A model generated the notes under the pieces. The model saw only the letters and a list, made by a program, of their open reading frames with translations. It had not been told where the DNA came from and did no database searches. 64,000 nucleotides of DNA from Candidatus Shapirobacteria bacterium (lineage in GTDB: Bacteria > Patescibacteriota > Microgenomatia > UBA12405), in assembly GCA_041658955.1 (NCBI GenBank), contig JBAZZE010000003.1, positions 3,842 through 67,841 of the forward strand. The letters are read 5' to 3'. Both the position numbers and the translations under genes were made by a program. Shown here one piece after another: positions 1 through 16,354 of the stretch. Within the stretch, counting starts at the first letter, position 1. Every line of letters starts with the position of its first letter.

Positions 1-1863
1 AGCGATTGGACTGGGAGAATAGTTGTAGAGGTTTTTGACGTCGGTGGCGGATAGGCCACGGTTATAAACACGAACTTCATCCAAACTTCCGCCAAAATAG
101 TAACTTTGGCCAGGGTACATGGTACCTAAATTTAGTGAAGTCCCAGCACCGCCAGTGCGTTCGGTTCCGTAGCATTGACTCATCTCCTGACTTATTCCAT
201 TGATGTAGATTTTACTTTTACCAGTGTAGAGTCCGTTGTACATAACCAGAGTGACATGAACCCATTTGTTGGCTAATCCGGTGGGGTTAATACCGTAAGC
301 ATCGCTGGCACCGGTGTTGAAACCCATACAAGTAGAAATGGGAAACCAAAGTTCATAATAATTACTACTCCCACCGCGAAGGTTGACGGGAATCTTGCCC
401 ACAGTACCGTTCCAATACATCCAAAAACTAACGGTATTGTAACCACCGACGGTGGTGGTGATATTTGGTAAGGTGACACCGATGTAATCATTGGTGTTGT
501 CAAAGCTAGCTCCGATGCCAAACTTACCATTACTCCAAGTAGGAGAAGAGTCGCCGTTGCCTAAAGTAGCAGTACGGTTGTTACCAGAACTGTCGGCAAG
601 TGATGAACCAACTCCTTCGTCGAATTTGTAGTAGGCGATGAGTCCATCAGAAATTCCCTTAGTACTATTACTACCGAAATTTACACCAGAATCTGAAGAT
701 GATTGGCCGGAAATACCAGTGGTGTAATCTTGCTTAATTTGATTAGCAGTACGGGCATATGAGAACACTTTTGTCTCATCAATTTTGGCGTCAGTATTCC
801 AGCCATACATGGTTCCAAAAATTAAGGAACTGCTATTGTTGACACTCCCGGTCACAGAAGAGATGTCGTATTCATTACTTTGTTTGACACCGTTGACATA
901 AAATTTGACTCGATTGTTGGTTTTATCAAAAACCACAGATAACATAGCCCATTTGTTTTTTAGATCGGTGGGTTTGTAACCATTATCAAATGTTATTGAG
1001 GCATTGGTAACTAAATTAGTACCATCGCTATAACAAATGTTGATACCGTTGGCATTGTATCCATGACCAATATCCCATCCTGGGTGACCGGCTGAGTAAC
1101 AAGTGCCAGATTTGTAAGCCATGAACCAAGTCTTAGGATAAGTGAAGTCGCGATAGTTGCCCCACATCTGGACCGTAAAATTGCCGGTATCAAAGTCCAA
1201 TAGGCTATTATCATAGACTGTAACATTGGGGATAGAGGTACCTGGCATACTGACGCATTTTCCAGAGAGACAGTCACTATCTGAAGTCCAAGTGGTATTG
1301 GATGATAAGTAGCCGATTAAACTACGGTCACTACCGGAGTTGTTGATACTAGTACCGACACCTTCATCAAATTTGTACCAAAGAACAGGACCGCCACCAA
1401 TTTCCTCGGTGACGGGGGAACCAATCGAATAACTTGAGGCTACATTGCTAAAGTCGCTGTTACTAAATTCGTTGTCCGCTGAGGAGTTACCATAGTAAGC
1501 ATAGATGGTTTGGGCGCCAGCAGGGAAAGAATCAAAATTGATATGAAATGATACATTGGTTGTGCCTGTGCCTGAGACTATGTAGTAGTCGAGAAGTTGA
1601 CCGGACGCAGTGGTAAAACGAAAGTCGCCATTGTCCGGTTGAGATTTGGCGGTAGTGCCGATGTTGATGGAGGTGCTAATGTAGACGTTGGTCTCATCAA
1701 CTGAGTGGGTGGAGATATTTATCTGTTGACGATACATCCAGGCGTCATTGAACCACTCTGCAAGAATGGTAGTTGGTTTTTGTTGAATTCGAAGGAGAGC
1801 GACAATGCCGATGAGAAGAATAACGACGATAGTAAAGAGTGTTTTGTAAGAGAGGCGGGTCAC
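1..1863 (-). CDS. Giant LamG-repeat surface protein, paralog 1 (C-terminal part runs off window; GTG start inferred at 1863)
   Basis: Reverse-strand translation of 1-120 gives ...GGSLDEVRVYNRGLSATDVKNLYNYSPSPIA, the LamG-type terminal motif shared with the two downstream paralogs. Region 1380-1863 is ~85% nt-identical to 5880-6370. Translation from GTG at 1861-1863 gives VTRLSYKTLFTIVVILLIGIVALLRIQQKPTT, matching the MEKFSYKTLFTIVVILLIGIV N-termini of the paralogs. The frame is consistent at both ends; the ORF is not in the track because it runs off the window and lacks ATG. Confidence 0.55.
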   Translation of the reverse strand, partial: MTRLSYKTLFTIVVILLIGIVALLRIQQKPTTILAEWFNDAWMYRQQINISTHSVDETNVYISTSINIGTTAKSQPDNGDFRFTTASGQLLDYYIVSGTGTTNVSFHINFDSFPAGAQTIYAYYGNSSADNEFSNSDFSNVASSYSIGSPVTEEIGGGPVLWYKFDEGVGTSINNSGSDRSLIGYLSSNTTWTSDSDCLSGKCVSMPGTSIPNVTVYDNSLLDFDTGNFTVQMWGNYRDFTYPKTWFMAYKSGTCYSAGHPGWDIGHGYNANGINICYSDGTNLVTNASITFDNGYKPTDLKNKWAMLSVVFDKTNNRVKFYVNGVKQSNEYDISSVTGSVNNSSSLIFGTMYGWNTDAKIDETKVFSYARTANQIKQDYTTGISGQSSSDSGVNFGSNSTKGISDGLIAYYKFDEGVGSSLADSSGNNRTATLGNGDSSPTWSNGKFGIGASFDNTNDYIGVTLPNITTTVGGYNTVSFWMYWNGTVGKIPVNLRGGSSNYYELWFPISTCMGFNTGASDAYGINPTGLANKWVHVTLVMYNGLYTGKSKIYINGISQEMSQCYGTERTGGAGTSLNLGTMYPGQSYYFGGSLDEVRVYNRGLSATDVKNLYNYSPSPIA

Positions 1864-1882
1864 TAGGATAATCTTACCAATT

Positions 1883-4800
1883 TTACCTAAAATTTACTCC
1901 ACTACCGTTGTAGACAGATTTTATTTGAGTTTCAGTTAGAGCGTAGTTGTAGACGCGAACATCATCGACTTGACCGTCAAGATAGCGGGGTGAGGCATTG
2001 TCTACCCGACCAATATAGAAATTGGCGTTATCAGTGTCGACTACTGAAACGATAGAAGAGGTTTGTTCGGTATTGAGTACTCCATTTTTGTAAAGTCGAA
2101 TATAGCTACCACCTTTGAAGACACCGCAGTAATGATCCCATTGGCCAGTAGTTACTAGACCAGTACTCCCTTCAACACGACCACTAGCGTCTGCTCCGGG
2201 GTCGACTGCGAAACTAACAGTATCACTACGCCCACTAAGGGCGGCACTATCATCGACCCAAAGAAGCCAACCGCCAAGGCTACCAAGATAGCGAGAGACG
2301 ATAGCACCATCGGTAGTAACTGAGGATGGGCGATATTTTAACCAGCTACAGACAGAGGCTTCAGTGGCTCCTTCGATGGTGGGAACTGTCATGCCAATGT
2401 TTATAGAGTCATCGGAGCCATCCAGACTGATAGAGGAATTCATCTTACCACTGGCACCATTGGTCCACGCCGCTGAAGTGCCAACAGAACAAGTGCCAGG
2501 AGTGGTTTGAGATCCTGAAGCACCAACGGTAAGAGTACCGTGATTGGCCAGACCACTCCAGTCAGCGATCTGGGTGCCCTGACATTCGTCCATTTTCCAC
2601 CAACCAGTTGGACCACCATGGTTGTAGTCGTAAGCTATTTGGGCTGGGGTACGGGCATAGTCATAGATTCGAACTTCATCAATAGCACCATTAAAATCAT
2701 CAACTAAGTAGCTGTTTCTGGCATTACCAATAGAGATGTCGTCGTTGTTGGCTATTGAACCAGTGGTTATATCATTACCGGTATTAACTAAAACTCCATC
2801 GACATAGAGATAAGCCTTGTCAGCAGAAAAATCTCTAACCCCGACGAGGTGATGCCACTGACCATTGTTTAATGGGGTTGGTCCGGTAACGTCAAAACCG
2901 GTAACACCATCTCTTAAAGTTATACCAGGTGTCCGTGTAGTCGCAGATAGGTAAAGTCTAAAAGGTGATGCACCACTATTTGTTCCATGTTTGGCCAACA
3001 AACTGTCAGTACTAGCACTAGTATCAGTAGTCTTGAACCAAGTTTCGACTGTATATGAGTTATTATTTCCAATGTCGGTAGTAGTTGTAGTTTCAGCAAA
3101 TCTGATGACACCGTCATTATTGTTAAAGTTAATACCAGAACCAAATTTTCCGAGAATCCAGGTATTAGTTCCTGTCCAGGTTGTACTATCGTTGTTATTG
3201 CCACTAGTATCTTTAGCGCTGGTACCAGCCTTTTCATCCAATTTCCAATTGGCTACTGGTGGACTACAGGGTGATGTGTCACCGGGGACACAGTAATCTA
3301 GACTAGTAGTGGTGGCACCGATAGTTTGATTTGATGAGCCAAAGGTGAAAGAGGAGTTTTGATTGAGGTCTGTTTTGATCTCGTCTTGACTTAGTTGATA
3401 GTTAAATAATTTGAAATCGTCAATCACACCTGAAAAATAGTTGGTGCTATTTTTACCAATGTTGATGGCACTACCAGTCACAGTGGTGCCGATACTGACA
3501 ACTACATGCTGCCAGGTATTATCGGTTAAAGTGCTGGTACTAATACCGTTTATGCTAATAGTGGGCGAGGTAAAACCAGAAGCAAAAAGAGTGTTCCCAG
3601 TGGCGCCAATAGCTACAGTCGGACTAAGGGAAAAGAAGTGGTTGTTGGTTATTCCACTGGGTTTTATCCAAAAGGATACGGACTGAATATTATTTACGGT
3701 GGTACCAACACTAAGATAATCGTTGGCAGAAAAACTGAGTCCTTTATTGTTTTTTCCATCGACCCACGAAGGGGATGAATTACCAGTGGCCAAAGTCCCG
3801 TTTACAGTGCCACCTATACCCCAATTACTGGTGGTTGAGCCGTTACTTTCATCAAACTTGTAATAGATAGCCGGTTTACCGTTGCGTGGTGAGGTATTGG
3901 AATCACCCTGCATGTCTTGAAGAACTTGTTCTTGGGTGCGGGCGTAATTGTAAAGTTTGACATCGTCGATTTTGCCGTCAAAGTCAAAGGAGGCACTGTT
4001 GTTGACGGTGCCAATATAAGTACTGTCAGGTGATGAGATACCAACGGAATAATATGCCGAAATATCTTGTGACTCAATTAGCTTTCCGTCCTGATAAATT
4101 TTGGCTGTACCATTTCGCGAAGCGATAGAACAAATGTAATACCAGTTACCAACTGTTAGGGGGTTGCTTTGAATTTTAACTGTGGTTGCTCCAAGATCCA
4201 ACATAAATTCCATCTGACTCAAGGCATCCCATCGGAGTTCGTAGCCTAAATTTGGAGAGGTATTGTCACGGTGTTCAAAAGCACCGGCAAACTCTGGACC
4301 GGTGGTTTCTGGGTTTAGCCATAGACAGACGGAAAAATCGTTTTTAACCATATCGTGCTCATCACTATCAGGAATGTTGACCCATTGATTACTGCTACTT
4401 TCAAAATCGAGGGCAGATCCAACCTTGCCAGTTATCCAAGTTGGTGAACCGTTAAAAGAAGAGCTGTTGTGACTTTTACCACTACTATCATAGGCGGTGG
4501 TTCCACTTTTTTCATCAAACTTCCAATAGCCAACTGGACCTGGAGCGTAGTTATAGAGATTTTTGACATCAGTAGAGGAAAGCGCGCGGTTATAGAGTTT
4601 GACCTCATCAATAGTTCCTTTGAAGTAATGTCCGGGGTCGGTGGCGTGATGGGTACCAATTCCCCAAGTGCTTGCCTCAGCAGTCCAGTTGCCAGTAGTA
4701 ACATTGCAAGTATTACTTAAAACACCATTAATATAGACTTTTTGAGTTTTGCCATCGGTTGTTCCAATGAGGTGATACCAGGTGTTGGCGGCAAGAGAAG

Positions 4801-6394
4801 TGCTGTAGGAGGTACTACAAACACTGCCTCCGGCAGACCTGAAAAAAGCGACAACTGTACCAGCATCGTTTTGGATATCGAATCCTTCTTCTTGATAATT
4901 TCTCATTATAATCGAGTACCACTCAGTACTTACTGCAGGAATCGAGGACATATTTATCCAAGCAGATATTGTTCCCTTATCTGCTCCTAGTGGAATTACT
5001 TGACCAGTAATGTAGTCGTTTCCACCGAAACTAGTTCCTATACCGAATTTTCCGCCTATCCAAGATGGGGCGGAGGTTCCACTACCAAAGGTTAGTGTCC
5101 GTGAATTCCCAGAACTATCTGCACTTGTTGAACCGACACCTTCTTCAAACTTCCAATAGCCAACTAGTCCATCAGATAAGCCTTTGGCACTATTACCACC
5201 AATATTGACTGAAGAGTTTGCTGAGGATTGGCCGGTATTAGAAGAGGTGAAGTCTTGTCTTATTTGAGTAACTGATCTGGCGTAGGAATATAGCTTTATT
5301 TCATCAATAATAGCGACAATGAAATCTTGGCTATCGGATTCAGAGCCAACCCTAAGACTTTGAGTGTTGACACCAATATCGTTGATATTTCCTAACGTCC
5401 CAGTTTGGGAAGCATTTGATTTGGCACCGTTAATATAAATATCAGTGTTGGAAGTGGAGTTATTGTCAAAAATAATTACGAAGTGTGTCCAAGTATTTGC
5501 GGTGATGGCTGATGTTTTTGTAAGTTGAAATTGATCGGTACCATCAGAAAAATAAACATCCAGTGTTCCGGTGGATGCTAGTCTAATATCGTAACCACTA
5601 GTGCCGGCAGTGGTGGAAGTTTTTTTGGCTAGAATAGTACCGGTGCTTGTCAGGGGACTCCTAATCCAGAGAGAAATAGTGAAGTTGGTGCCATCGGAAA
5701 ATTCTTGAATAGAGTTGTCGCCTAAATTTATATTGTCGTTACCATCAAAAGATAAACAATTACCAGAAATACATTGATCAGAAGTTAGCCAACTGGGTGA
5801 GGAGTTGCCTGTATTTAAGGATCCATTATTGTTTCCAGTTGAAGAATCAAAGGCAGTAGTGCCAGTACCCTCATCAAACTTATACCAAGCCACCGGACCA
5901 CCACCAATTTCTTCAGTAACAGGGGAGCCAATAGAATAACTTGAAGCAACTGTAGAAAAGTCACTATTACTAAATCCGTTGTCGGCAGAGGGGTTACCAT
6001 AGTAAGCATAGACAGTCTGGGCACCAGCGGGGAAACTATCAAAATTGATATGGAATGATATATTGGTTGTGCCTGCACCGGAGACTATGTAGTAGTCGAG
6101 CAGTTGGCCAGAGGAGGTAGTAAAACGAAAGTCGCCGTTGTCAGACTGAGACTTAGCTGTGGTACCGATATTGACTGAAGTACTAATGTAAACATTGGTC
6201 TCACCAACAGAATGTGTAGAAATATTTATAGCTTGACGATACATCCAGGCGTCATTGAACCATTCAGCTAAAACAGAGGTTGGTTTTTGTTGAATTCTTA
6301 TCAGGGCGACAATGCCAATCAGAAGAATAACAACAATAGTGATTAAAGTTTTGTAAGAAAATTTTTCCACTTTATCTAAAGGTTGCTGAACCAT
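1883..6394 (-). CDS. Giant LamG-repeat (Laminin_G_3/concanavalin-like) surface protein, paralog 2; N-terminal TM anchor
   Basis: 1503-aa ORF. It contains about 6-7 repeats of the W[YW]KFDE...D.SG..N.G.L...P.W..G..G.AL.F.G..D.V...(D[DE]V[KR][IL]YN[RY]AL...[EQ][IV]) LamG pattern. It has an N-terminal hydrophobic helix. An alternative GTG start at 6370 would give MEKFSYKTLITIVV, identical in style to paralog 3, and would sit 1 nt after the upstream stop. Confidence 0.7.
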   Translation of the reverse strand: MVQQPLDKVEKFSYKTLITIVVILLIGIVALIRIQQKPTSVLAEWFNDAWMYRQAINISTHSVGETNVYISTSVNIGTTAKSQSDNGDFRFTTSSGQLLDYYIVSGAGTTNISFHINFDSFPAGAQTVYAYYGNPSADNGFSNSDFSTVASSYSIGSPVTEEIGGGPVAWYKFDEGTGTTAFDSSTGNNNGSLNTGNSSPSWLTSDQCISGNCLSFDGNDNINLGDNSIQEFSDGTNFTISLWIRSPLTSTGTILAKKTSTTAGTSGYDIRLASTGTLDVYFSDGTDQFQLTKTSAITANTWTHFVIIFDNNSTSNTDIYINGAKSNASQTGTLGNINDIGVNTQSLRVGSESDSQDFIVAIIDEIKLYSYARSVTQIRQDFTSSNTGQSSANSSVNIGGNSAKGLSDGLVGYWKFEEGVGSTSADSSGNSRTLTFGSGTSAPSWIGGKFGIGTSFGGNDYITGQVIPLGADKGTISAWINMSSIPAVSTEWYSIIMRNYQEEGFDIQNDAGTVVAFFRSAGGSVCSTSYSTSLAANTWYHLIGTTDGKTQKVYINGVLSNTCNVTTGNWTAEASTWGIGTHHATDPGHYFKGTIDEVKLYNRALSSTDVKNLYNYAPGPVGYWKFDEKSGTTAYDSSGKSHNSSSFNGSPTWITGKVGSALDFESSSNQWVNIPDSDEHDMVKNDFSVCLWLNPETTGPEFAGAFEHRDNTSPNLGYELRWDALSQMEFMLDLGATTVKIQSNPLTVGNWYYICSIASRNGTAKIYQDGKLIESQDISAYYSVGISSPDSTYIGTVNNSASFDFDGKIDDVKLYNYARTQEQVLQDMQGDSNTSPRNGKPAIYYKFDESNGSTTSNWGIGGTVNGTLATGNSSPSWVDGKNNKGLSFSANDYLSVGTTVNNIQSVSFWIKPSGITNNHFFSLSPTVAIGATGNTLFASGFTSPTISINGISTSTLTDNTWQHVVVSIGTTVTGSAINIGKNSTNYFSGVIDDFKLFNYQLSQDEIKTDLNQNSSFTFGSSNQTIGATTTSLDYCVPGDTSPCSPPVANWKLDEKAGTSAKDTSGNNNDSTTWTGTNTWILGKFGSGINFNNNDGVIRFAETTTTTDIGNNNSYTVETWFKTTDTSASTDSLLAKHGTNSGASPFRLYLSATTRTPGITLRDGVTGFDVTGPTPLNNGQWHHLVGVRDFSADKAYLYVDGVLVNTGNDITTGSIANNDDISIGNARNSYLVDDFNGAIDEVRIYDYARTPAQIAYDYNHGGPTGWWKMDECQGTQIADWSGLANHGTLTVGASGSQTTPGTCSVGTSAAWTNGASGKMNSSISLDGSDDSINIGMTVPTIEGATEASVCSWLKYRPSSVTTDGAIVSRYLGSLGGWLLWVDDSAALSGRSDTVSFAVDPGADASGRVEGSTGLVTTGQWDHYCGVFKGGSYIRLYKNGVLNTEQTSSIVSVVDTDNANFYIGRVDNASPRYLDGQVDDVRVYNYALTETQIKSVYNGSGVNFR

Positions 6395-9300
6395 TATTTA
6401 TGATGCTTTTAATTTGGGTTTCGGTAAGGAGGTAGCCGTAATAGCGGAAGTCATCAATCTTCCCAGTGGCTTCTTCTGTACCATCACCATTGGAACCAAA
6501 GGCAAGATTATTATTAGTATTGGGAACTGTAAGGTTAGCAGTGCCACCCCAGGAACCAGTTAATAACTTACCATTGTGATAGAGGCGAATGGAGGAGTCG
6601 TCGCCACTAGTGTAAGCCACTGCGTAGTGGTTCCAGGTGCCAACATTGACGACATTTTGATTACCACTATAGCAGTGGACACTGGTATTGACTACACAAA
6701 ATTCTAAGGAACCATCGGAATAAATTTGAGTATACCAACCGTTACCACCGATATTTTTACCAGCATAAGTGTCGTAGGTGCCGGCACCGGGAAGACTGGT
6801 TGGATTAAACCAGTAAGCAATAGAAAAACTGTCGCTTGAACCGATATCGAGTGAGCCTTTGGATTCAGATTCGGTTACGGCAGCTAGGTCATCGTTGCCG
6901 TCAAAATTAAGAGAACCATTGATTTTGCCACTAGCACCGTTGGTCCAAGCAGCTGCAGTTCCACTGTTACAAGTACCAAGAGAAGTTTGAGTACCGGCAG
7001 CACCGATGGAAATGACTCCGGTATAACCTGTGCCCATAGAGTTGTGAATTATGGATCCTTGGCATTCGTCAAACTTGTACCAGACTAGTGGACCGCCTTG
7101 ATTGTAGTCAAGGCCAACTTGGGCAGGAGTACGGACATAATTGTAAATCCGGAGATCGTCAATATCGCCTTTCCAAGGATAGGTGACTCCGGTAGTATGA
7201 GCACCAATAGTGGCTCGAGTCGAGCTGAGGGCACCGGTATAGGCACCGAGGGCGGTATCAGTATCGGTGAGGAGGCCGTTACAATAATGAACCACCTTGC
7301 CGGCGGTTTGATCCCAAGACATAGCTATAAAAATATAACCAGTATCAGTCAGAGCGCAATCAAGACTGGTTTCGTTAGTGGCAGCGGCAGTATAGAGAGT
7401 ATTTAAACTTCCGTCAGAGGCTTTACGAATGGTGATCATATTATTTACATCGGCCCCGATGGTAAGAACTTGATGTTGAACTCCATCTCCCCAGACACCG
7501 TCGCCAACCCTAAACCAGGCAGTGACAGTACCTTGGTTGCCACTAAAAAGGCTAGCAAGATTGGCTGAATAGATATTTATATAATCGTTTGAGCCATCAA
7601 AATTTAGGGCCGAACCGTTTTTACCGGGAACCCAATCGTCACTGGTCATGCTTCCATTGGCAACACCGTTATTACCATTTCCAGAAGTGTCGGGGAGAGT
7701 AGAGGGAGTCCCAACATTGGTATCAAAATTCCATTCACCGATGGGAGCATTACAAAGAGCAGTATCGCCGGGAATACAGTATTTTAGACTGGTGGTAGTA
7801 GCACCAATGGTTTGAACAGTTTGGCCTGATTGAATGACTGAATTGCGATTATAGAGTTGTTTGATTTCATCAGAATTTAGGGCGTAATTGTAGACATTAA
7901 CTTCATCAATTTTTCCGATTGTATAGTTGCCACCAGCGGGCTGAGTACCAATACGAAGATTTTTGGCGTTAGCAGTCATCGTGGTATGGGTGGCTATTGT
8001 ATTAGTACGGTCAACGCCATCAACATAGACTCGGCAGGATGTTCCGGTTTTGGCGGCTACGAGGTGATGCCAAGTACTATCGGCAAGTACATATCCAGTG
8101 GCTGTATAGGTGTCATTAAAACCAGTAGTATTTGCAGTACGACAATAAACTTCGCCAGCATTTCCAATTAGAAGGGCATAACCACCATCACTACTAGCGT
8201 CAGTTTTGGAAATAATATATTCATTGGTACCGCCACTACGAGAGACCCAAGCACTTAGGGTAAAGTCATCGGTAAAATCGAGATAATTATTGTCCGATAT
8301 TTGGACATAATCACCACCATCAAAAGAGAGAGCTTGGTCGGAGCGACCGACAGTCCAGGCTGGGGAGGCGGTGCCAGCGCCGAAAGTACCAGTAAAATTA
8401 TTTCCAGATGAATCGTTGGCTAGAGTGCCGGAATTTTCTTCAAACTTGAGATTGATTATGGGGGTTAATGGTTTGCCATTACCCATGTCTTCCCTGATTT
8501 GGGATTTAGTACGGACATAATTATAAATTTTGACATCATCTAACTGAGCATTGACTGTATTTACAGCAGCTCGTGATCCGATACGTAAGTTTTGACCACT
8601 GCTGGTGATAATAACCATACCAGTAGCACCAGTATCAAGGTGACCGTTGACATACAGACTGGCAGCTCCATCACTGGTAATAGTGGCGCTAAGAAAAGAC
8701 CAAGTGTCGAGGCTAAGAGTATTGGGTGAAGTAAGCTGAAGATAGGTTGAGCCATTGCCGATGCGAAGGCGAGGCGTGCGACTGCTTTGCCAACCTAGTG
8801 AATAACCAGCGTTGTTGTTAGTCCGGTCAATGACATAGACATCTCCTGGTGGGGTATCAAGAGGTCTAACCCAAGCAGAAAGGGTTACATTGCCGGTTAA
8901 GTTGAAATCAGTACTAGTCGACTCCAAATAATCATTGGAGCCATCGAAAGTTCCACCTTTACCGATTTTTCCAACTGAGCCGCCAGTGGGACCGGTACTG
9001 GCAGGACAGGAGCGGAGGTGGTGATCATATCCAGAACTGTCCATCGCGGTATTGGTGGAACAATTATTATTCCAGGAAGCTTCTTCCATTTTCCAATGAC
9101 CGATAGGGCCAGGGGCATAGTTATAAAGAATTTGCATTTCTGAGGGTGATAGGGATCGATTATATAACCTAATATCATCGAGTAATCCCGAGAATTCACT
9201 ACCACTATTACCTCGTCTGCCGATTAGTAGAGAGGTTGTAAGAGCCGTGGGGGCTTGAGTAACATTTGAGTTAAAGTAGCCAGTTTTTACTCCATTAACA

Positions 9301-11627
9301 TAAAAAGTGGCTTTGTTTGTGGCTGAGTTATCAAAAACTACTGCAACGTGATACCAAGTATTGGCAAAGACACTGTTACTTGAAGAACAAACAGAGGCGG
9401 CTTGATTATTTGTTTCGTAACATACTCGACCACCGGCTTGAAGGTAAAAATTGTAAGCGTTGGTTGTGTCACCTGAACCATCTTTGCTTATGATATATTC
9501 CTCACCTGCAGATAGATCATTACTATTGACCCAGGCACTGATAGTGAAATTTGTAGTTACATCAAGGCTATTTGAGTCTACAGCAGTAGCGTAATCCGTT
9601 GTCCCATTGAGTGAAAGTCCAACTCCAAATTTGGAAAGAGTTGACCATTCTGGAGCAGATGAACCGGCGGCAAAGGTAACTGTGTTGGTACCACCCGATG
9701 AGTCGATGACGGTTGTCCCGGTATTTTCATCCATTTTCCACCAACCAACGAGACCATTGGAAAGGGTGTCATTGAGGTCACGACCGACTTTGACACCACT
9801 ATCGGCGTTATAACTGTTTTTTATTTGGGAGTCTGTTCGAGCATAATCGTAAAGTTTAACCTCGTCAATAACTCCCTTAAATGCGGCAGTATTTCCGTCT
9901 GAACCTATTTGGAGATCTGAATTACTAGCGTATAAAGTATCACCACCTGTAGGTAAATTTGAACCACCTGTTAGATTTGAACCATTGACATAAATCTTAA
10001 GACTGGCCCCGTTCCTAACACCAACAACGTGATACCAGGTGTTTTTGGCCATAGTAAAAGTTGTGGGTCGAGTGAAAGCGTTGTAACCGGACCCTGAAGC
10101 GTTCACCCAGGCAAATGTAAACCTATTTTCGCTGGAGGTATAATCAGCTTGGAGTTCATACGATTCCCAAGGACTACCACCGTGTTTTTTCATAATAATA
10201 ACTTCGCGGCCACCGGGGACTTCAGACGGCAAAGCGTGAAGATAGACCCAAGCCTCGACTGACATGTTGGCCGAGGGCCGGAGAATACTATTGTCACCAG
10301 ATTTAGTAAAACGATTTCCAAGACCATCAAATTGAAGAGCATTGTCATATTTCCCTATAGTCCAAGATGGCAAGGTGGTGGAAGTACCGCCGGTTTCAAT
10401 AACGCCATCAAATCGATTAGGGCTAGAGTCATAGGCAGAAGTACCAATATTTTCATTGAATTTCCAATAAGCGACTGGCTCAGTATTATTGTTTTCAGTG
10501 GGTATAGTGGCACTAAAAAATGTAGATGGTGAATTTTGGTTGTTGTGTTCGGTACTGACCCAAGTGGTTGACCGGACGGATTTTGAAACACGAACTTCAT
10601 CGATAAGACCATTGGCGTCTGTTGGCCAAGAAGTAGTGCCACCAAGCATAAAACTGGCTGACGATGAACCGGGATCGACGGTTCGACTAACTTCGGTGCC
10701 ACCAACTGCACCATTGATATACATATAGTCAGTGTCAGATGTAGAGTTGTGAACACCGGTGATGTTGTACCAGGTTCCAGTAGTGACAGAGCCAGCACCA
10801 CCGAAGGTGCCGTATTCACTACCGTTAATATAGCTGATGCCCATACTGGTAGTGTTGTCATAAAAATACCAACCGGTACCATTTTCTTTACCTAACCAAT
10901 CATGCCAGCCTAAGGAGGTAGCTTTGACCCAAAAACTGGCACTAAGATCAGTAACGGTTTGACCGTTTTTGCTGGGAAAGTTGCTACTTAAATTAGTATC
11001 AGTGCGAAAAAGATCTCCTGCTTGAGTAAAACTGGCAGCTGTACCAATTTTACCGGTAGCATTGCTCACTGTTCCGGAAATTGCCAAATGGTTGTTATTG
11101 CTAGTGGAATCATAGCGGGTAGTGCCAACCTCATTTAGATGCCAAACACCAACATAATTGCTGTCCCAAACATTATTTTTACCGAATTCGAAAGCAGCGT
11201 CATAGTCAGTGGCACCGGAATTTCCATAATAAATATAAATAGAGGTGTCGACGGTCGAGGAGAGGGTCCCAGAGTATTTGAAATATAATTCACCAGCATC
11301 AGTGGCAGAATCATAATAAACTACTTCACGAGGTAGCTCGGTAGTGCCATCACTTTTAGTGACTCGAATATCACGAGCATCAGTTTGATTGACATGGGCA
11401 TGAAAATCTGCCGGAAGACTGGCGAGACTTACTAGGATAGGAAAATCAGTTTGGTCGGCAGAAACCTTGGTGTGGTCTATGGTTAGCATTAACCGATTGG
11501 TCCAACCAGTGTGATACCAAGCGGCTTCAACTGTGGTTGGTTTAGTTTGGATGCGAATTAAAACGACAATTCCAATCAGCAAAATTACGACAATGGTAAA
11601 CAGGGTTTTATACGAGAACTTTTCCAC
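6372..11627 (-). CDS. Giant LamG-repeat surface protein, paralog 3 (GTG start); N-terminal TM anchor
   Basis: 1751-aa ORF starting at GTG (plus-strand CAC at 11625-11627). N-terminus MEKFSYKTLFTIVVILLIGIVVLIRIQTKPTT. Repeated WKFNE/WWKMDE/HWKMEE ... DEV[KR][LV]YNYA[RL]T...I LamG-like units. The C-terminal ...LTETQIKSIINNGSATFR is shared with paralog 2. Confidence 0.7.
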   Translation of the reverse strand: MEKFSYKTLFTIVVILLIGIVVLIRIQTKPTTVEAAWYHTGWTNRLMLTIDHTKVSADQTDFPILVSLASLPADFHAHVNQTDARDIRVTKSDGTTELPREVVYYDSATDAGELYFKYSGTLSSTVDTSIYIYYGNSGATDYDAAFEFGKNNVWDSNYVGVWHLNEVGTTRYDSTSNNNHLAISGTVSNATGKIGTAASFTQAGDLFRTDTNLSSNFPSKNGQTVTDLSASFWVKATSLGWHDWLGKENGTGWYFYDNTTSMGISYINGSEYGTFGGAGSVTTGTWYNITGVHNSTSDTDYMYINGAVGGTEVSRTVDPGSSSASFMLGGTTSWPTDANGLIDEVRVSKSVRSTTWVSTEHNNQNSPSTFFSATIPTENNNTEPVAYWKFNENIGTSAYDSSPNRFDGVIETGGTSTTLPSWTIGKYDNALQFDGLGNRFTKSGDNSILRPSANMSVEAWVYLHALPSEVPGGREVIIMKKHGGSPWESYELQADYTSSENRFTFAWVNASGSGYNAFTRPTTFTMAKNTWYHVVGVRNGASLKIYVNGSNLTGGSNLPTGGDTLYASNSDLQIGSDGNTAAFKGVIDEVKLYDYARTDSQIKNSYNADSGVKVGRDLNDTLSNGLVGWWKMDENTGTTVIDSSGGTNTVTFAAGSSAPEWSTLSKFGVGLSLNGTTDYATAVDSNSLDVTTNFTISAWVNSNDLSAGEEYIISKDGSGDTTNAYNFYLQAGGRVCYETNNQAASVCSSSNSVFANTWYHVAVVFDNSATNKATFYVNGVKTGYFNSNVTQAPTALTTSLLIGRRGNSGSEFSGLLDDIRLYNRSLSPSEMQILYNYAPGPIGHWKMEEASWNNNCSTNTAMDSSGYDHHLRSCPASTGPTGGSVGKIGKGGTFDGSNDYLESTSTDFNLTGNVTLSAWVRPLDTPPGDVYVIDRTNNNAGYSLGWQSSRTPRLRIGNGSTYLQLTSPNTLSLDTWSFLSATITSDGAASLYVNGHLDTGATGMVIITSSGQNLRIGSRAAVNTVNAQLDDVKIYNYVRTKSQIREDMGNGKPLTPIINLKFEENSGTLANDSSGNNFTGTFGAGTASPAWTVGRSDQALSFDGGDYVQISDNNYLDFTDDFTLSAWVSRSGGTNEYIISKTDASSDGGYALLIGNAGEVYCRTANTTGFNDTYTATGYVLADSTWHHLVAAKTGTSCRVYVDGVDRTNTIATHTTMTANAKNLRIGTQPAGGNYTIGKIDEVNVYNYALNSDEIKQLYNRNSVIQSGQTVQTIGATTTSLKYCIPGDTALCNAPIGEWNFDTNVGTPSTLPDTSGNGNNGVANGSMTSDDWVPGKNGSALNFDGSNDYINIYSANLASLFSGNQGTVTAWFRVGDGVWGDGVQHQVLTIGADVNNMITIRKASDGSLNTLYTAAATNETSLDCALTDTGYIFIAMSWDQTAGKVVHYCNGLLTDTDTALGAYTGALSSTRATIGAHTTGVTYPWKGDIDDLRIYNYVRTPAQVGLDYNQGGPLVWYKFDECQGSIIHNSMGTGYTGVISIGAAGTQTSLGTCNSGTAAAWTNGASGKINGSLNFDGNDDLAAVTESESKGSLDIGSSDSFSIAYWFNPTSLPGAGTYDTYAGKNIGGNGWYTQIYSDGSLEFCVVNTSVHCYSGNQNVVNVGTWNHYAVAYTSGDDSSIRLYHNGKLLTGSWGGTANLTVPNTNNNLAFGSNGDGTEEATGKIDDFRYYGYLLTETQIKSIINNGSATFR

Positions 11628-11640
11628 AACTAATTATAGT

Positions 11641-12048
11641 CTAGTAGAACACCACTTTGACGGTTTGGGGAAGGTTTTGTTGGTTGTTACTGGCAGTGAT
11701 AGTTGCTTTTAGGGCAGTGTTAGAAGACAGGTCAAAAACTGCTTTACCTGTATCATCAGTGGTAGTTTGAACTGAGGTAATAGAAACTTTAGGGGAGGAA
11801 GTAAGGCTAACTGTTTGGTTGGGGACACCTAGACCTCGACCATCAAGTAAAAAAACGGTAACCCGAATTTGTTCTTTACCATCAGCTTTGGCTTGGAGAG
11901 GAGAAGAAAAAAGATAGGAATTACCATATGCAACTGAGCTACTACTGCCAGCAGCCCGACCCAAGAAAATAGTGGTACGAAAAACAAGAGCAAGTGAAGC
12001 TAGGAGAGTGAGAAGTAAAAAAATAATAATGACAATCGGTCGGCGCAT
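11641..12048 (-). CDS. Small secreted/anchored Ig-like hypothetical protein
   Basis: 135-aa ORF with N-terminal signal/TM (MRRPIVIIIFLLLTLLASLALVF). The remainder is Ser/Thr-rich and beta-strand-like. It sits 13 nt upstream of the LamG paralog 3 start. Confidence 0.4.
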   Translation of the reverse strand: MRRPIVIIIFLLLTLLASLALVFRTTIFLGRAAGSSSSVAYGNSYLFSSPLQAKADGKEQIRVTVFLLDGRGLGVPNQTVSLTSSPKVSITSVQTTTDDTGKAVFDLSSNTALKATITASNNQQNLPQTVKVVFY

Positions 12049-12051
12049 ATA

Positions 12052-12870
12052 TTAGAGTATAGGGTATCTGGTAAGTGGATAGTAAAAAACCGCCGGTAAA
12101 TATCGAGGTTGAGCGGTAGGGTGAAGGTAAAGATAAAGAAGATAAGCAAAAAGTAAAACTGTGCTAAGAAATAAAGGAACAATAATTAAGATGTTAAATT
12201 GTTGAGGTAGGCTATAGGTAATGGTATTGGATTTGGGACTAGCTAGAGTAGCAAAATCAACGGTACTAAAAAGTCGATAATCACTACTGAGTGAGGTAGG
12301 AATATTAAGATTATAGTTACCGTTAATATCGGTTTTGGTAGAAAATACCGGTAATCCAAAAGCTTGGGCTGGAACTGGAAGAATAGGAGCCTTGGCGTTG
12401 GTTTGGTAGAGGAAGACATTGATAGTTGAAAAAGGAATGCTTTGTCCTGAGGCGGCAGTAGTACTGTTGGCTTTTATGGTTTCCGAATCGATAGTGATAG
12501 TGGGAGGGAGAATAATTGGTCCAATATTGGTGAGATAGTTGGTATCAGGTGGGGGTGGAACACAGACTGGGTTGGTGTGGCGGAGGTCATCATCGACTGC
12601 TAAGAGGCATAATTCTCCCGGATTTCTAGGAATAATGATGCGATCGAACTCGAAGTAGCCATTTTCCTTGGCATAAGTAACATCATAGACTTTGGAACTA
12701 CTCAATTCGACTCGAGCTAGGGGAGAGGTAAAGCCATAAATGGCAACTCGACTTTCTTCAATTGAACCAGAAACGGTGACTCCCTTTTGAGCTGAAGAAG
12801 CGGCAACACTTAGATGTGGGGAAAAGGTACCAACAATTAAAGTGAAGGCTGCAAAAAAATATTTAAGCAT
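12052..12870 (-). CDS. Surface protein with CnaB/carboxypeptidase-regulatory-like beta-sandwich motifs and C-terminal TM anchor
   Basis: 272 aa. Signal peptide (MLKYFFAAFTLIVGTFSPHLSVAASS). Motifs GYFEFDRI and TDINGNYNLNIP are typical of CnaB/CarboxypepD_reg folds. C-terminal hydrophobic segment LIIVPLFLSTVLLFAYLLYLYL. Confidence 0.4.
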   Translation of the reverse strand: MLKYFFAAFTLIVGTFSPHLSVAASSAQKGVTVSGSIEESRVAIYGFTSPLARVELSSSKVYDVTYAKENGYFEFDRIIIPRNPGELCLLAVDDDLRHTNPVCVPPPPDTNYLTNIGPIILPPTITIDSETIKANSTTAASGQSIPFSTINVFLYQTNAKAPILPVPAQAFGLPVFSTKTDINGNYNLNIPTSLSSDYRLFSTVDFATLASPKSNTITYSLPQQFNILIIVPLFLSTVLLFAYLLYLYLHPTAQPRYLPAVFYYPLTRYPIL

Positions 12871-12888
12871 TAATTAATTGTACACAGA

Positions 12889-13869
12889 TTAGCGATCTTT
12901 GTACTTTTTCTTCAAGGCTTCTAGCTCTTTCTCTAGTTCTTCGACTTGACCATCATCTTCATGTTTTGGTGCGGGCTGTTGACGTCTAACTAGGGTGTAG
13001 ATGACATAAGCAAGAATGAGAGCGGTGATGACTAGAGCAATTAGTCTCCATGGTATTACCCAGAAGAATAGAGTAGCAGAGATAGCTTGACCGGTAGTGC
13101 CATAACCAGCATTGAGAGTGGCAGTGTAACGTCCAAACAGCCATTTACGATTGAGAGTGTTTTCAAATCCACGAGCGGTGTTGGGGAAAATATTGGTAAG
13201 GTTAAGGGGGAGATCGGCAGTCTTACCACCGAGCCAGTTTTTGATAGCGATGCTTCCGGCGGGGGTGACATGAATATCGGAAAGATTAGCAACAATAGTT
13301 TTAAAATTAATTGGTCCAAATTCGGAAAAGCCTGGTGCAGAAAATTCAGTGACACGAGCGTCTTCTTTAATATCACCTGGTACAGTGATGTAGATCAAAG
13401 TACCGACATTAGTTTCGATAAAAGAACCGGTTTCAGTAAGTACGGATTCGTTTTTGGGACTGTGGAGAATCATAGAATAATGTCCACCGGAAAGTGCATC
13501 GTCAGGAGCAATTATGGTCATCATGATGGATCTGGTTTCACCGGGTTTTAGGCGAAAACTAGTGGGTGAGAGATGGATCCAGGAAGAAGCAGCCCAACGA
13601 TTACTGCTTTCGTCAAGATTTTCAAGTTGGAGTGGAGTACCTTCACTATCAGTAACGATAAAGTCTTTGCTGGTAGTGGTGATAACTCTTTCAGTCTTGG
13701 ATTCGTTACGGATTTTTAGTTCTTTAGTGACGGTTTCGCCGGGTTTGAGGGTAACTTCGAGTCGGGGAGGAATAGCACTAAGACCAGTAGCTGATTGAGC
13801 CTGAACATTAGTAGTGGTAAGTAATGAACTTCCGAAAAGAATTAGTAGGGGGAGGATTATTTTTTTCAT
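12889..13869 (-). CDS. DUF916/DUF3324-like (WxL-interacting-type) cell-surface protein with C-terminal TM anchor and charged tail
   Basis: 326 aa. Signal peptide. N-terminal segment LSAIPPRLEVTLKPGETVTKELKIRNESKTERVI, then WIHLSPTSFRLKPGETRSIMMTIIAPDDALSGGHYSMI; this resembles the DUF916/DUF3324 pattern of Firmicute Csc loci. C-terminal TM (WRLIALVITALILAYVIYTLV) followed by KHEDDGQVEELEKELEALKKKYKDR. The call is pattern-level only. Confidence 0.4.
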   Translation of the reverse strand: MKKIILPLLILFGSSLLTTTNVQAQSATGLSAIPPRLEVTLKPGETVTKELKIRNESKTERVITTTSKDFIVTDSEGTPLQLENLDESSNRWAASSWIHLSPTSFRLKPGETRSIMMTIIAPDDALSGGHYSMILHSPKNESVLTETGSFIETNVGTLIYITVPGDIKEDARVTEFSAPGFSEFGPINFKTIVANLSDIHVTPAGSIAIKNWLGGKTADLPLNLTNIFPNTARGFENTLNRKWLFGRYTATLNAGYGTTGQAISATLFFWVIPWRLIALVITALILAYVIYTLVRRQQPAPKHEDDGQVEELEKELEALKKKYKDR

Positions 13870-13870
13870 T

Positions 13871-15355
13871 TTAGAAGGTGGCAGTCGCTGTATAAACTAA
13901 TTTACTTTCATAATTACCAGCTCCTTGGGTGGTTGAAGCGGTAGCTCGGTAACAAACATAGGCTCGTTCAGTAGCAGAAGGAGTGGTGACATTTTTCATA
14001 ATTTCTTTAGCATTAGCAGTACCGTTTCCAAATGGTCGATAACCAGATTGATAGTTGAAGATGGTTGTACCAACATTTATGTTGTGCATGGTGTAACCCC
14101 AACCGGAAGCGGTATAGGTACTCCATAGAGCAGGAGTGGTAGTGGTACAACCGGCACCATTACAATCGGTATCAGGAAGGGTGTCTCCATCGGCAATATT
14201 TTGCATGGGACCATCTTCATAGACAGTGACCACATAACCATTATTAGCATTGGTGACACAAGAAAGTCGTTGGGCCAGATCGTTGGGTCCGGCTAGGACA
14301 AGAGAACCATAGGCCACGGCGGTAGCGGTAGTATTACCGGCATTTGTACCGAAGGCTGAAAGTCCACAGGGGGTAGCACCGACACCGACTCCGGTGGCAT
14401 CGATGATAAAGGTAAGAGTTGGGTCAATAGTAGCAGTCACCCGAACTGACTCGACAACTGCGATTTTACCTTGGGCAGTATCAGCGTCGATTACCAATGA
14501 ACCACTATCTAGGTGTCTGACATAGAAAGTGTAGACATCAGCATTTCCTTCAAAAGCGACCGTGTGGTTGGGAGAAGGATTGATAAGCTGGCTACCGGTG
14601 GCTAGGTCAGCTCCAATGGCCATAGAATAGCCAACACCGACTTGGTTGGTACCACCAACTCCGAGGTAACAAGAGATAATGTGATAAGAACTACCATTAA
14701 CAACTGTGGTTGTGCCAACACTATAAGCAGTGGTAACCCCAATTCCCCAGTTGGGACAGGTAACGTCAGTGACTTTTAGCCTTGTGCCCAGACCATTGGC
14801 GGTTGAAGATGGAGTAGTAGCACCAAGATCAAAACCATTTTGATCGGGAATACCATCGTTGTAAAGTTCACCAGTAGAGCTGGTAGCTTTGAGTAAGAAT
14901 TGCCAAAAACCGCCAGCAGCGTTTGATTGGGGAGTAAGACTAATAGTGTGAATAGCGGAACGAGTAGCAATAATGGCAGCGTTGATGAAAGCATTGCTTT
15001 GACCAATAGCGGTGTTTAACTCGATAGTTTGAGTATTACCAATGTCTTGAACGACATATTTAGTGAGAGGTCCGCTGATACCAACTCCAACTCCAGTGGT
15101 ACCAATGGCAATAGTATCGCCGACAAAAAGGTTGTTGGTAGTATTGCTAGGTAGTCCAGTGCTACCAACTTTAATGATGGAATCTCCAGTAGTAATAGGA
15201 GCGCTAATTCGGCCAAAATAAGATAGCTGAGAATTACTTAAAGTATCCTTGACAGAAGATGGTGGAAGAGAGCGGACTTTTTGTGGTTTAAAAATAGCAA
15301 ATGTACCAAAAGCTACCAACAAAATGGGTACTAAAATAACTAGTCGTCGTTTCAT
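13871..15355 (-). CDS. Secreted Thr/Gly-rich surface protein with WxL-like C-terminal motif
   Basis: 494 aa with an N-terminal signal/TM and Thr/Gly-rich beta-strand-like sequence. The C-terminus YRPF..(TVP)..STTQGAGNYESKLVYTATATF is homologous to the C-terminus of the 20477..21211 protein (YRPF...STTQAAGSYQSAIIFTAVPNY). This resembles the Y...L.W.L...P WxL motif with W replaced by F/Y. The stop is 1 nt from the start of the DUF916-like gene. Confidence 0.4.
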   Translation of the reverse strand: MKRRLVILVPILLVAFGTFAIFKPQKVRSLPPSSVKDTLSNSQLSYFGRISAPITTGDSIIKVGSTGLPSNTTNNLFVGDTIAIGTTGVGVGISGPLTKYVVQDIGNTQTIELNTAIGQSNAFINAAIIATRSAIHTISLTPQSNAAGGFWQFLLKATSSTGELYNDGIPDQNGFDLGATTPSSTANGLGTRLKVTDVTCPNWGIGVTTAYSVGTTTVVNGSSYHIISCYLGVGGTNQVGVGYSMAIGADLATGSQLINPSPNHTVAFEGNADVYTFYVRHLDSGSLVIDADTAQGKIAVVESVRVTATIDPTLTFIIDATGVGVGATPCGLSAFGTNAGNTTATAVAYGSLVLAGPNDLAQRLSCVTNANNGYVVTVYEDGPMQNIADGDTLPDTDCNGAGCTTTTPALWSTYTASGWGYTMHNINVGTTIFNYQSGYRPFGNGTANAKEIMKNVTTPSATERAYVCYRATASTTQGAGNYESKLVYTATATF

Positions 15356-15697
15356 TAATTATTGAACAAAATTTGCCTAATAATTAAAGATATGTCCTAT
15401 TTAGACTTGTGTCAATGGGTGGGTAGTCTTTATATAGTGAACTTTCCCACCCATTTTGTAAGTAATATAGTAGTAGTTAAGACAATTATTAGTTTTTTCG
15501 AAGCTATTTTATCTTTTCTCGATGTAAATCGAGAATAAAATCAAAATTGGTACAGTTTTTTTATTAAGAAAAATATGCTTTCGGTCCGGTGGACACTGGA
15601 CTTCATCAGCCCCGATAAACGGGATAGCATGACCACCTCCAGGGGATTCTCAAAAATCGAGAATTTACCCTAGGGGTGGAGAGCGTGTAGAGGAGGA

Positions 15698-16165
15698 TTA
15701 ATTGCCGGGGAGATAGTAGTAGAGATCGTCAACGATTTTGTCGAATTCGACATCTATTTCCATCGTGGACTGATCACTGTCGTAGTACTTCGGGTCGTAA
15801 TGCTCGACATCAACATCAGCAAGGATGTGCCATTCATTGTTGTCGCATACGTAACCGAGAGTAAACGAGTACCACCAGTCTTCCTGTTCCCAGTAGATGT
15901 CCCGGGAAGTGCTGTGGGCCAACTGTCCTTGTTCTTCCAGAGGAGTAACGAAGGTGCTGTAGGCATAAGTGTCCGCCGTCTTGGTTTCGAAGATGACGAA
16001 CAAATGATGCCCCAGCCAGTTGATGCCAAAAGCAGCGGCAAAAACGGCGGCAACCAGAATTACCTGGCGCAGAGACAAGCGGATCTCGGACAATTTCTTG
16101 GACATGGGGGGTCTCCTTATTGATGGTTGTATCTGAAAACTCGTGAGAGCTTTTACAGATTTCAA
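15698..16165 (-). CDS. Hypothetical membrane protein (likely start at internal Met, 16105)
   Basis: ORF in a visibly more GC-rich segment. Internal MSKKLSEIRLSLRQVILVAAVFAAAFGINWLGHHLF has a TM helix. The rest is a Trp/Tyr-rich acidic domain with no recognisable family. Confidence 0.35.
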   Translation of the reverse strand: MKSVKALTSFQIQPSIRRPPMSKKLSEIRLSLRQVILVAAVFAAAFGINWLGHHLFVIFETKTADTYAYSTFVTPLEEQGQLAHSTSRDIYWEQEDWWYSFTLGYVCDNNEWHILADVDVEHYDPKYYDSDQSTMEIDVEFDKIVDDLYYYLPGN

Positions 16166-16220
16166 CCATCAATATTTACACGCTAATTTTTAAAGAACTG
16201 ACGGATGGTTTATCGCAATG

Positions 16221-16244
16221 ATAAAAATCCGCCTTACAAAAGGC
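16221..16244 (-). terminator. Putative intrinsic terminator downstream of 16355..17356
   Basis: Minus-strand GCCTTttgtAAGGC followed by GGATTTTTAT. The adjacent perfect 16-nt palindrome CCCGAAAGCTTTCGGG (16254..16269) and the long imperfect inverted repeat CCGAACCCCTCC...GGAGGAGTTCGG (16288..16345) were also seen. Confidence 0.4.
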
Positions 16245-16354
16245 AGTTTTAACCCCGAAAGCTTTCGGGACTAAAAAACCTTTCCGAACCCCTCCCAAAC
16301 AAAACAAACAAATACATGTTTGCCGTGTTTGAGGAGGAGTTCGGTGAATAGGTT

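Follow-up and report, generated by a model that had tools for sequence, protein, structure and literature searches.

Three tandem genes for putative DUF2341-LamG surface proteins in a Candidatus Shapirobacteria genome and evidence for old homogenisation of a shared 5' module

The stretch of DNA analysed here, referred to as the window, comprises 64,000 nucleotides (nt) of a Candidatus Shapirobacteria genome (assembly GCA_041658955.1, contig JBAZZE010000003.1, positions 3,842 to 67,841). Its first 11.6 kb consist of three co-oriented open reading frames (ORFs) on the minus strand, arranged in the order P3, P2, P1, the coordinates of which are listed in Table 1. An earlier note on this DNA had described them as three tandem LamG paralogs, and this description is borne out: each ORF is intact, and the Pfam domains DUF2341 and Laminin_G_3 are present in each. 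Every protein begins with a Sec signal or anchor and continues with one DUF2341 beta-sandwich, six to seven LamG (concanavalin-like lectin) units and a conserved tail. Scores for Laminin_G_3 (PF13385) passed the cut-off of 27.6 bits in all three proteins, with 109 bits for P1 (two stretches in 621 amino acids, aa), 405 bits for P2 (seven stretches) and 497 bits for P3 (seven stretches). DUF2341 (PF10102; COG MJ1470) was located near the N-terminus of P1 (28.8 bits) and P3 (28.0 bits), above the gathering score of 23.4 bits. The score for P2 was 20.9 bits, under this cut-off, yet the domain is 88% identical to that of P1. The C-terminal motif LTETQIKS..NGS..FR that had been reported as shared is present in P2 and P3 and is in fact family-wide, with the consensus ...IDDVRxYNYxLTxxQxKxxYNGGxxNF[RK], found in essentially all homologs as ...GQIDDVRIYNYALTxEQIKxxYNGGAVNF[RNQK]. 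Similarity to the TafC family fimbrial protein (NF052521) was partial and confined to the LamG level, with scores of 39, 146 and 199 bits against a cut-off of 410 bits, and this assignment was rejected. Exact-sequence look-ups of P3, with either V or M as first residue, returned no match. The remainder of P1 was obtained from a contig of the Joint Genome Institute (JGI), L092, which is 100% identical to window positions 1-621 and continues in frame to a TAA codon. Downstream of P1 on this contig lies a reverse-oriented Big_1-like gene, so P1 is the last member and the array consists of exactly three genes. The gene family to which the array belongs is widespread and uncharacterised, and the array is an ordinary member of it.

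P1 and P2 share a 5' block that corresponds to the signal peptide plus DUF2341, hereafter the N-module. The best blastn match between the two genes was 81.1% identical over 492 nt (1360-1851 versus 5867-6358, E = 8e-135), which is far beyond chance. A nucleotide identity of about 85% had been stated for the two N-termini; the measured values are 79.8-81.1%, the lower of which was obtained for 1380-1863 versus 5887-6370, where the offset is corrected to 4507. The encoded proteins are 88% identical along the 165-170 residues of the block. The far greater divergence of the remaining sequence and of P3 was correctly recognised in the earlier note. The pairwise alignment is not uniform along the genes, and the boundary of the block is sharp: identity in 60-nt windows is 0.73-0.85 within the block and about 0.3, the random level, below position 1350. 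By the method of Nei and Gojobori, the proportion of synonymous differences (pS) in the block is 0.61 (bootstrap 0.50-0.71) and that of nonsynonymous differences (pN) is 0.08, while only 43% of four-fold sites are identical. Outside the block pS is 0.66-0.86, and the synonymous contrast between tract and body in the window (0.61 versus 0.66-0.86) is therefore weak. The resemblance of P3 to P1 and P2 is limited to the first 35 codons or so; aa identity across the first 50 codons is 62-68%, and synonymous sites there are saturated. Between its DUF2341 region and theirs identity is 20-30%, and in the N-module tree this region belongs to a different subtype. The term "triplication" oversimplifies the locus, as P3 carries a separate, anciently diverged N-module subtype.

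The distances along the genes form a mosaic. The N-modules of P1 and P2 are 88% identical; L006, the closest of the other genomes, reaches 69%, and the remaining homologs 49-68%, with about 63% for L086. Whole-protein identity, N-module included, is 46% for P1-P2, 48% for P1-L006 and 72% for P1-P1x. Here, P1x (L091, from JGI 3300014208) denotes a partial positional ortholog of P1 with the same downstream gene, from a relative approximately 80% identical in nucleotide sequence. Over residues 80-165 of the N-module, the three copies are equidistant, with aa identity and pS of 91% and 0.53 for P1-P2, 88% and 0.60 for P1-P1x, and 88% and 0.56 for P2-P1x. Outside two replaced units, identity between the bodies of P1 and P1x is 66-100%, for the most part 78-100%, at a pS equal to that of the N-module, and between those of P1 and P2 it is mostly 22-54%. 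Residues 166-621 of P1 are 44% identical to P0021 and, over 180 aa, 62% identical to the prepilin-like P0029, versus 36.6% to P2. Given the strong constraint on LamG bodies among orthologs, those of P1 and P2 would have split long before the last common ancestor of their N-modules.

A scan of species-representative genomes revealed tandem pairs or triplets of such LamG genes in many Patescibacteria. In the N-module tree, paralogs of the same genome pair with each other in eight genomes: the window, L002, L029, L033, L043, L046, L053 and L062. In L002 and L029 the tandem paralogs have a pS of 0.00 over the first 120 codons, followed by an abrupt jump to 0.5-0.8. The identical 5' tracts are 500-800+ nt long: in L002 (8513-14869) the 100% identity extends from the start codon to +500, and in L029 (2209-9950) from at least -400 to +400, with an abrupt end in both. 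L033 and L053 are intermediate, with a pS of 0.38 in the first 60 codons. As read from the sequences, the tracts of L002 and L029 mark very recent gene conversion. Judged from these comparisons, homogenisation of the 5' module is a recurrent property of the family, of which the window shows an old instance. The suggestion in the earlier note that gene conversion acts on the module of transmembrane segment and first domain agrees with both the mosaic distances in the window and the identical tracts in L002 and L029.

The pattern of P1 and P2 is probably due to an old event of gene conversion or module replacement, after which purifying selection acted. This forms part of a joint explanation, namely a surface LamG array with an old conversion of the 5' module, an adhesin role and leaderless-type GTG starts, which as a whole we consider probable, though by no means secure. 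The signal peptide and DUF2341 would be kept family-wide by purifying selection and periodically overwritten by gene conversion among tandem paralogs. The last homogenisation in the window would be old, with a synonymous divergence (dS) of about 1, roughly the age of the split from the approximately 80%-identical sister species. Divergence of the P1 and P2 LamG bodies would go back much further, with additional change between orthologs occurring through replacement of whole units. Several points weigh against this explanation. Near-saturation of the synonymous sites in the P1/P2 block makes the age of the conversion imprecise; the confidence interval of pS in the block overlaps some between-genome values; and the three-way comparison depends on one partial ortholog (L091), known for P1 only. 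With respect to function, the AlphaFold model of the N-module is of moderate quality (pLDDT, the predicted local distance difference test, 69.6), and Foldseek against PDB found no match to it below E = 0.03, with template modelling (TM) scores of at most 0.3. The 326-aa protein encoded nearby scores 16.1 bits (E = 0.012) against PF06030 (DUF916/WxLIP), below the cut-off of 27.3. The -10-like boxes described below are pattern matches, and a generic promoter scan of the region gave 46 hits versus 34.9 +/- 6.1 in shuffles, not clearly above expectation.

One alternative invokes constraint only: all three genes would be ancient paralogs that were never homogenised, and the 5' block would look similar solely through much stronger purifying selection on the signal peptide and DUF2341 than on the LamG units. 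The N-module is indeed the best-conserved part of the family (49-69% across genomes versus about 37% for whole proteins), and near-saturation of synonymous sites together with the low pN of the block would be expected from such selection. However, constraint acting equally on all copies does not readily account for the N-module of P1 being only 68-69% identical to that of L006, although the two proteins are no more diverged overall than P1 and P2. Moreover, the LamG bodies are themselves constrained between orthologs (mostly 78-100% aa at a pS of about 0.6), which makes the split of the P1 and P2 bodies much older than that of their N-modules. The within-genome pairing of N-modules in eight genomes, two of them with zero synonymous differences, argues in the same direction. 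Constraint without homogenisation is therefore regarded as unlikely.

With regard to export, 59 family members were compared. Ala occupies position -1 in 56 of the 59 and V, A, T, I or S position -3 in 57, ahead of a conserved xWW[ND]xWxYR motif. The candidate cleavage site lies about 35 residues from the start, behind a K/R-containing n-region and a hydrophobic core of about 20 aa. The hydrophobic N-terminus, described in the earlier note as a transmembrane (TM) segment, is thus present in each protein, and the Ala -1 pattern indicates that it is probably a cleavable Sec signal peptide of the signal peptidase I type, with the mature protein starting at DUF2341. In the N-module model, a helix at residues 6-27 is followed by a beta-sandwich. 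A PDB sequence search with the N-module profile gave chance-level matches only. In the literature, DUF2341 appears only as a predicted type IV pilus-like component (PMC4858521) and in large, presumably adhesive Patescibacteria proteins (PMC11809585). On the basis of the LamG lectin folds, the LamG subtypes shared with prepilin-like proteins and the literature on large DUF2341 proteins of Patescibacteria, we infer that P1-P3 are surface lectin-like adhesins. Docking to a conserved partner in the envelope would be mediated by DUF2341, and binding of differing surface glycans or host ligands by the variable LamG arrays, so that the proteins would serve as adhesins of an episymbiotic cell.

It is also conceivable that the proteins belong to a type IV pilus-like filament, as its tip adhesins or accessory components, rather than being wall- or membrane-docked proteins of a WxLIP-type complex. 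Archaeal type IV pilus loci hold DUF2341 proteins that have been proposed as tip adhesins (PMC4858521), LamG unit 1 of P1 is 62-65% identical to the LamG domains of the prepilin-like P0029 and P0030, and the 494-aa protein of the neighbouring cassette shows weak fold matches to the fibre or pilus subunits TasA, Saf and CsuE. The TM scores of these matches are 0.35 or below, though, and the N-termini carry an AxA-type signal peptidase I site instead of a class III signal with a G/FTLIE-type motif. In addition, the Pfam-scanned ORFs of the window and the Pfam listings of the inspected syntenic loci contained no pilus ATPase, PilC or prepilin peptidase. A pilus-associated role is accordingly held to be quite improbable. 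Prepilin identity of the proteins themselves was rejected. A prepilin would have a short, basic leader that ends in Gly, and Glu at +5 of the hydrophobic segment behind it; the N-termini read V-[ET]-[KR]-[FL]-S-Y-K-T-L..., with no N_methyl Pfam match and no G/F-T-L-I-E.

Exchange of LamG units was analysed by an all-against-all comparison of units. Units of P1, P2 and P3 are collinear, all pairs being 30-44% identical, and no recently duplicated or exchanged units were seen among the three proteins. Between P1 and its ortholog P1x, two whole units differ, at aa 180-363 (16-34% identity) and aa 1064-1268 (28-46%), with flanks at 78-100%. The domain shuffling that had been proposed is thereby observed as replacement of whole units between orthologs and not between the three paralogs. 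In the first case the core of unit 1 of P1 is of different origin: it is 58-66% identical to LamG domains of the prepilin-like P0029 and P0030 (annotated as PilV) and of secreted proteins of about 700 aa, and the whole unit is 33% identical to unit 1 of P2. In the second case, outside the window, P1 keeps an L006-like unit (59.5%) and P1x is the changed copy. Breakpoints coincide with two conserved motifs, WYKFDEG at unit starts and IDExxxY at unit ends, which constitute the only repeated DNA in the array (direct-repeat families D2-D6).

The earlier note had proposed a recent duplication, or gene conversion of the N-terminal module, that could support domain shuffling or phase variation; if the event were recent or still ongoing, the locus would be actively shuffling domains or phase-variable. 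A sharp boundary such as that of the P1/P2 block, and the 5' tracts of L002 and L029, which in these related genomes are 100% identical and truly recent, are what this view would lead one to expect. The synonymous sites of the block do not agree with it: near saturation, with the pS and four-fold identity given above, they barely differ from between-genome comparisons, and P1 is as far from P2 as from its ortholog in the approximately 80%-identical species. Nor do the repeats. The tandem-repeat scan of the array found none, the inverted-repeat scan found only two chance-level pairs more than 9 kb apart, and no simple-sequence repeats were detected, which speaks against phase variation. Every copy in the array is an intact full-length ORF, and the tracts, invertible segments and silent cassettes of a contingency locus are absent. 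Furthermore, a separately assembled contig (L001; European Nucleotide Archive, ENA, ERZ27249449 k141_1553481, 9039 nt) is 100% identical to window positions 648-9686, so that no population variation is visible over 9 kb. A recent event, or an actively varying locus, is consequently very unlikely. Finally, the source is metagenome-derived and repeats can mislead assemblers, but it is extremely improbable that the tandem copies and junctions are products of a collapsed or chimeric assembly, given that the 80%-identical repeat is too diverged to collapse or mis-join, that L001 covers both gene junctions and both N-modules without a difference, that P1 continues in frame on L092, that none of the three ORFs is disrupted, and that many genomes have tandem arrays of a similar kind. 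Strain variants of the upstream cassette (L088, L089 and L090; 93-96% nt identity to window positions 11406-19559) were found in ENA ERZ27249449 and in JGI 3300014208 and 3300037810. Since the approximately 80%-identical relative L091 is present in 3300014208 alongside strain variants, several related populations co-occur.

Start codons were inspected for a leaderless-type pattern, defined as a -10 box about 5-10 nt before the start codon without a Shine-Dalgarno sequence. P3 starts, as had been proposed, with GTG at 11627-11625, two non-start codons after an in-frame TAA. For P2, the GTG at 6370-6368 lies one nt past the P3 stop codon TAA (6374-6372), and use of the alternative ATG 6394 would create a 23-nt overlap, both as the earlier note had it. 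Read from this GTG, P2 begins with VEKFSYK, matching P3 and the L086 gene, which is annotated as GTG-VEKYSYK; several JGI proteins likewise start with V. ATG 6394 may still be the start of P2, if less probably, as some homologs have longer n-regions. The P2 stop codon (1885-1883) is followed by a 19-nt spacer and then by the P1 GTG at 1863. P1 had been said to have no in-frame ATG, which is incorrect, since one exists at codon 43 (1737-1735). The GTG starts, with GTG 1863 as the best start of P1, are supported by at least ten homologs in which GTG is the sole candidate, namely those in L006, L002 (two genes), L007, L026, L010, L025, L029 (two genes) and L056. An in-frame stop precedes the GTG by 0-3 codons in seven of them, the L029 copies having 63 upstream codons and one further in-frame GTG, and in each a TAnnnT hexamer ends 6-7 nt before the GTG.

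Boxes of the -10 type precede the GTG codons of P3 and P1, and no such box was found before that of P2. Across the window, a TATAAT-like box (at least 5 of 6 positions) ends 4-11 nt before the start in 20 of 43 genes, against a background of 3.2%. The modal spacing from box to start is 5-6 nt, examples being the genes at 46094-47155, 48767-49240 and 53727-54722, and a Shine-Dalgarno-like motif precedes only four of the 43 genes. These patterns suggest largely leaderless-type initiation in this genome of the Candidate Phyla Radiation (CPR); literature searches returned nothing on leaderless initiation in CPR bacteria. P3 and P1 are predicted to have internal leaderless-type promoters, and P2 would probably be translated by reinitiation 1 nt after the P3 stop. 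Because P3 and P1 have -10-like boxes of their own, 5-7 nt before GTG, and P2 has none, the translational coupling formerly proposed for the whole array fits the P3 to P2 junction and would not extend array-wide. A promoter and terminator scan inside the array was not above shuffle expectation and found no terminators there. Upstream, a promoter-like pair TTGACA-17-TATCTT (15387-15415, minus strand) lies about 30 nt before the 494-aa gene, and a terminator-like hairpin (16247-16276, minus strand) follows the gene preceding it. Together, the hairpin and the promoter-like pair suggest a transcription unit starting at the cassette. In view of this -35/-10 pair and the lack of terminators within the array, read-through transcription of the array is possible.

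Table 1. Positions of the LamG array, its internal features and the adjoining cassette genes in the window
Feature	Position	Strand	Description
P3	6372..11627	-	1751 aa, GTG start; signal peptide or anchor, DUF2341 (type-2 N-module), 7 Laminin_G_3 stretches, conserved C-terminal tail
P2	1883..6370	-	1495 aa from GTG 6370 (1503 aa from ATG 6394); signal peptide, DUF2341 (type-1 N-module), 7 Laminin_G_3 stretches
P1	1..1863	-	GTG start; 621 codons in window, cut by window edge; full protein 1506 aa
P1 copy of 5' module	1360..1863	-	Signal peptide + DUF2341, codons 1-168; 81.1% nt and 88% aa identity to P2 copy, pS 0.61
P2 copy of 5' module	5867..6370	-	blastn match to P1 copy
N-terminal hydrophobic segments of P1, P2, P3	1759-1863, 6266-6370, 11523-11627	-	Ala -1 pattern
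P3 N-terminal hydrophobic segment	11523..11627	-	Codons 1-35; sole part shared with P1/P2
Core of P1 LamG unit 1	760..1350	-	aa 172-368; cassette of different origin, 16-34% to P1x (L091 ~280-780)
P1 in-frame ATG	1735..1737	-	Codon 43; chosen by gene caller on L001; would delete signal peptide/hydrophobic N-terminus
P2 alternative ATG	6392..6394	-	Chosen by gene caller on L001; overlaps P3 by 23 nt
P3 -10 box TATAAT	11633..11638	-	5 nt upstream of GTG, within 13-nt gap after Big_1 gene; near-same sequence precedes L006 homolog
P1 -10-like box TAAGAT	1871..1876	-	7 nt upstream of GTG, within 19-nt P2-P1 spacer
P3 stop/P2 start junction TAA-A-GTG	6368..6374	-	Candidate termination-reinitiation site
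Big_1 (Ig-like) protein	11641..12048	-	135 aa; Pfam; cassette member
272-aa protein	12052..12870	-	Signal peptide, two transthyretin-like domains, C-terminal TM; cassette member
326-aa WxLIP_PGBD-like protein	12889..13869	-	Signal peptide, C-terminal TM; cassette member
494-aa secreted protein	13871..15355	-	First cassette gene; hundreds of homologs

The array is preceded by four genes that belong to a cassette conserved across Microgenomates, in which the order is the 494-aa protein, the WxLIP-like protein, the 272-aa protein with two Ig-like domains, Big_1, one or more LamG genes and a reverse-oriented Big_1. Synteny of the cassette was observed in at least 15 loci, and the L006 locus matches the four upstream genes at 76, 77, 67 and 66% aa identity. 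L006 and L086 (494-aa protein 82% identical) carry a single type-1 LamG gene at the position of the array. Because these closest genomes carry one, the three LamG genes of the window (one type-2, P3, and two type-1, P2 and P1) represent a lineage-specific expansion. In the family of the 326-aa protein, 13 of 14 members match PF06030 (best E 5e-7), the copy in the window scoring below threshold, and a PDB sequence search with this protein gave chance-level matches only. No Pfam match to a WxL domain was obtained for the LamG, Big_1, 494-, 326- and 272-aa proteins or their families, and the 494-aa family has no Pfam match. The model of the 494-aa protein has a pLDDT of 68.6, with 80-91 for the C-terminal domain, and Foldseek returned weak matches to multi-domain beta-sandwich proteins, namely SafDAA (E = 6e-5, TM score 0.13), the TasA fibre (TM score 0.35) and CsuE, which are leads and not assignments. 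Downstream of the array in relatives (L002:17107-21731; L086:19127-21485), a small ORF with a weak Phage_int_SAM-like domain is immediately followed by another giant gene, of about 2100 aa; the equivalent of this region lies beyond the left edge of the window.

Literature searches found no description of this cassette, which on its gene content would be a conserved surface-protein cassette and possibly an undescribed surface complex. A more far-reaching proposal, which we put forward tentatively and regard as doubtful, is that it constitutes an undescribed adhesion apparatus of episymbiotic CPR bacteria. The DUF2341 N-module would then act both as a docking handle and as a homology handle for homogenisation, and exchanged LamG arrays, including units shared with pilin-like proteins, would set host or ligand specificity.

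The rest of the window is ordinary CPR chromosome, with genes for ComEA, ComEC, LeuRS, MreB, MurB, RuvABC and CTP synthase and two tRNAs. The nearest relatives of every gene tested are from Microgenomates, Shapirobacteria and Woesebacteria. The genes for tRNA-Arg(CCT) and tRNA-Pro(CGG) adjoin each other at 39585-39768 on the minus strand. On the plus strand, a giant ORF with a GTG start (24675-31880, 2401 aa) encodes Kelch and fibronectin-III/Ig-like domains and is followed by genes for an ABC-transporter ATPase and an FtsX/MacB-type permease.

Little is known of how CPR/Patescibacteria recognise their hosts and attach to them, and the locus offers a clean example of a widespread syntenic cassette. 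Its variable members, with a copy number of one to three, swapped LamG units and homogenised 5' modules, behave as would be expected of specificity determinants. For practical purposes, two likely mis-annotations are corrected, that is, ATG 6394 for P2 and Met43 for P1, and the leaderless-type pattern, together with the conserved GTG starts, is relevant to gene calling in metagenome-assembled genomes of this kind. It should be noted that the discovery is incremental, since paralogous surface proteins in tandem, gene conversion and non-ATG starts are well-known phenomena.

Conserved 5' modules evolve in concert in polymorphic gene families for surface proteins or toxins, as in Rhs/CdiA-type families and in pilin cassette recombination: the N-terminal module for delivery or docking stays homogeneous, the distal part diversifies, and breakpoints lie at module boundaries. 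The LamG array resembles Rhs/CdiA-type families in its conserved N-module, variable distal part and breakpoints at module boundaries. In contrast to them, it has no silent or orphan cassettes, toxin/immunity pairs or dedicated recombination sites, and all copies are full-length with intact starts. The neighbourhood is also comparable to the WxL/Csc clusters of Firmicutes, which combine WxL, DUF916/WxLIP and small anchored proteins: WxLIP_PGBD-like, small Ig-like and larger secreted proteins are encoded by co-oriented, tightly packed genes. It differs from them in that no WxL domain was detected, the WxLIP match in the window is sub-threshold, the large proteins are of the DUF2341-LamG type and the organism belongs to the CPR. 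As in archaeal type IV pilus loci (Makarova et al. 2016, PMC4858521), large DUF2341 proteins are encoded, for which an adhesin role has been proposed there; unlike in those loci, prepilin signals and pilus assembly genes nearby are lacking, and the context is that of a bacterial CPR genome. A further parallel is provided by large DUF2341/LamG-containing proteins of Patescibacteria, such as the giant proteins noted for Patescibacterium danicum, for which a host-attachment role was inferred and domain reshuffling via homologous recombination was speculated upon (PMC11809585). Both are very large exported CPR proteins that combine DUF2341 with repeated adhesion-type domains. Those proteins are of the FhaB type and exceed 4000 aa, whereas the proteins described here are LamG arrays of 1500-1750 aa with a defined N-module, a conserved C-terminal tail and a five-gene neighbourhood, and the recombination that was a matter of speculation there is documented here by sequence comparison.

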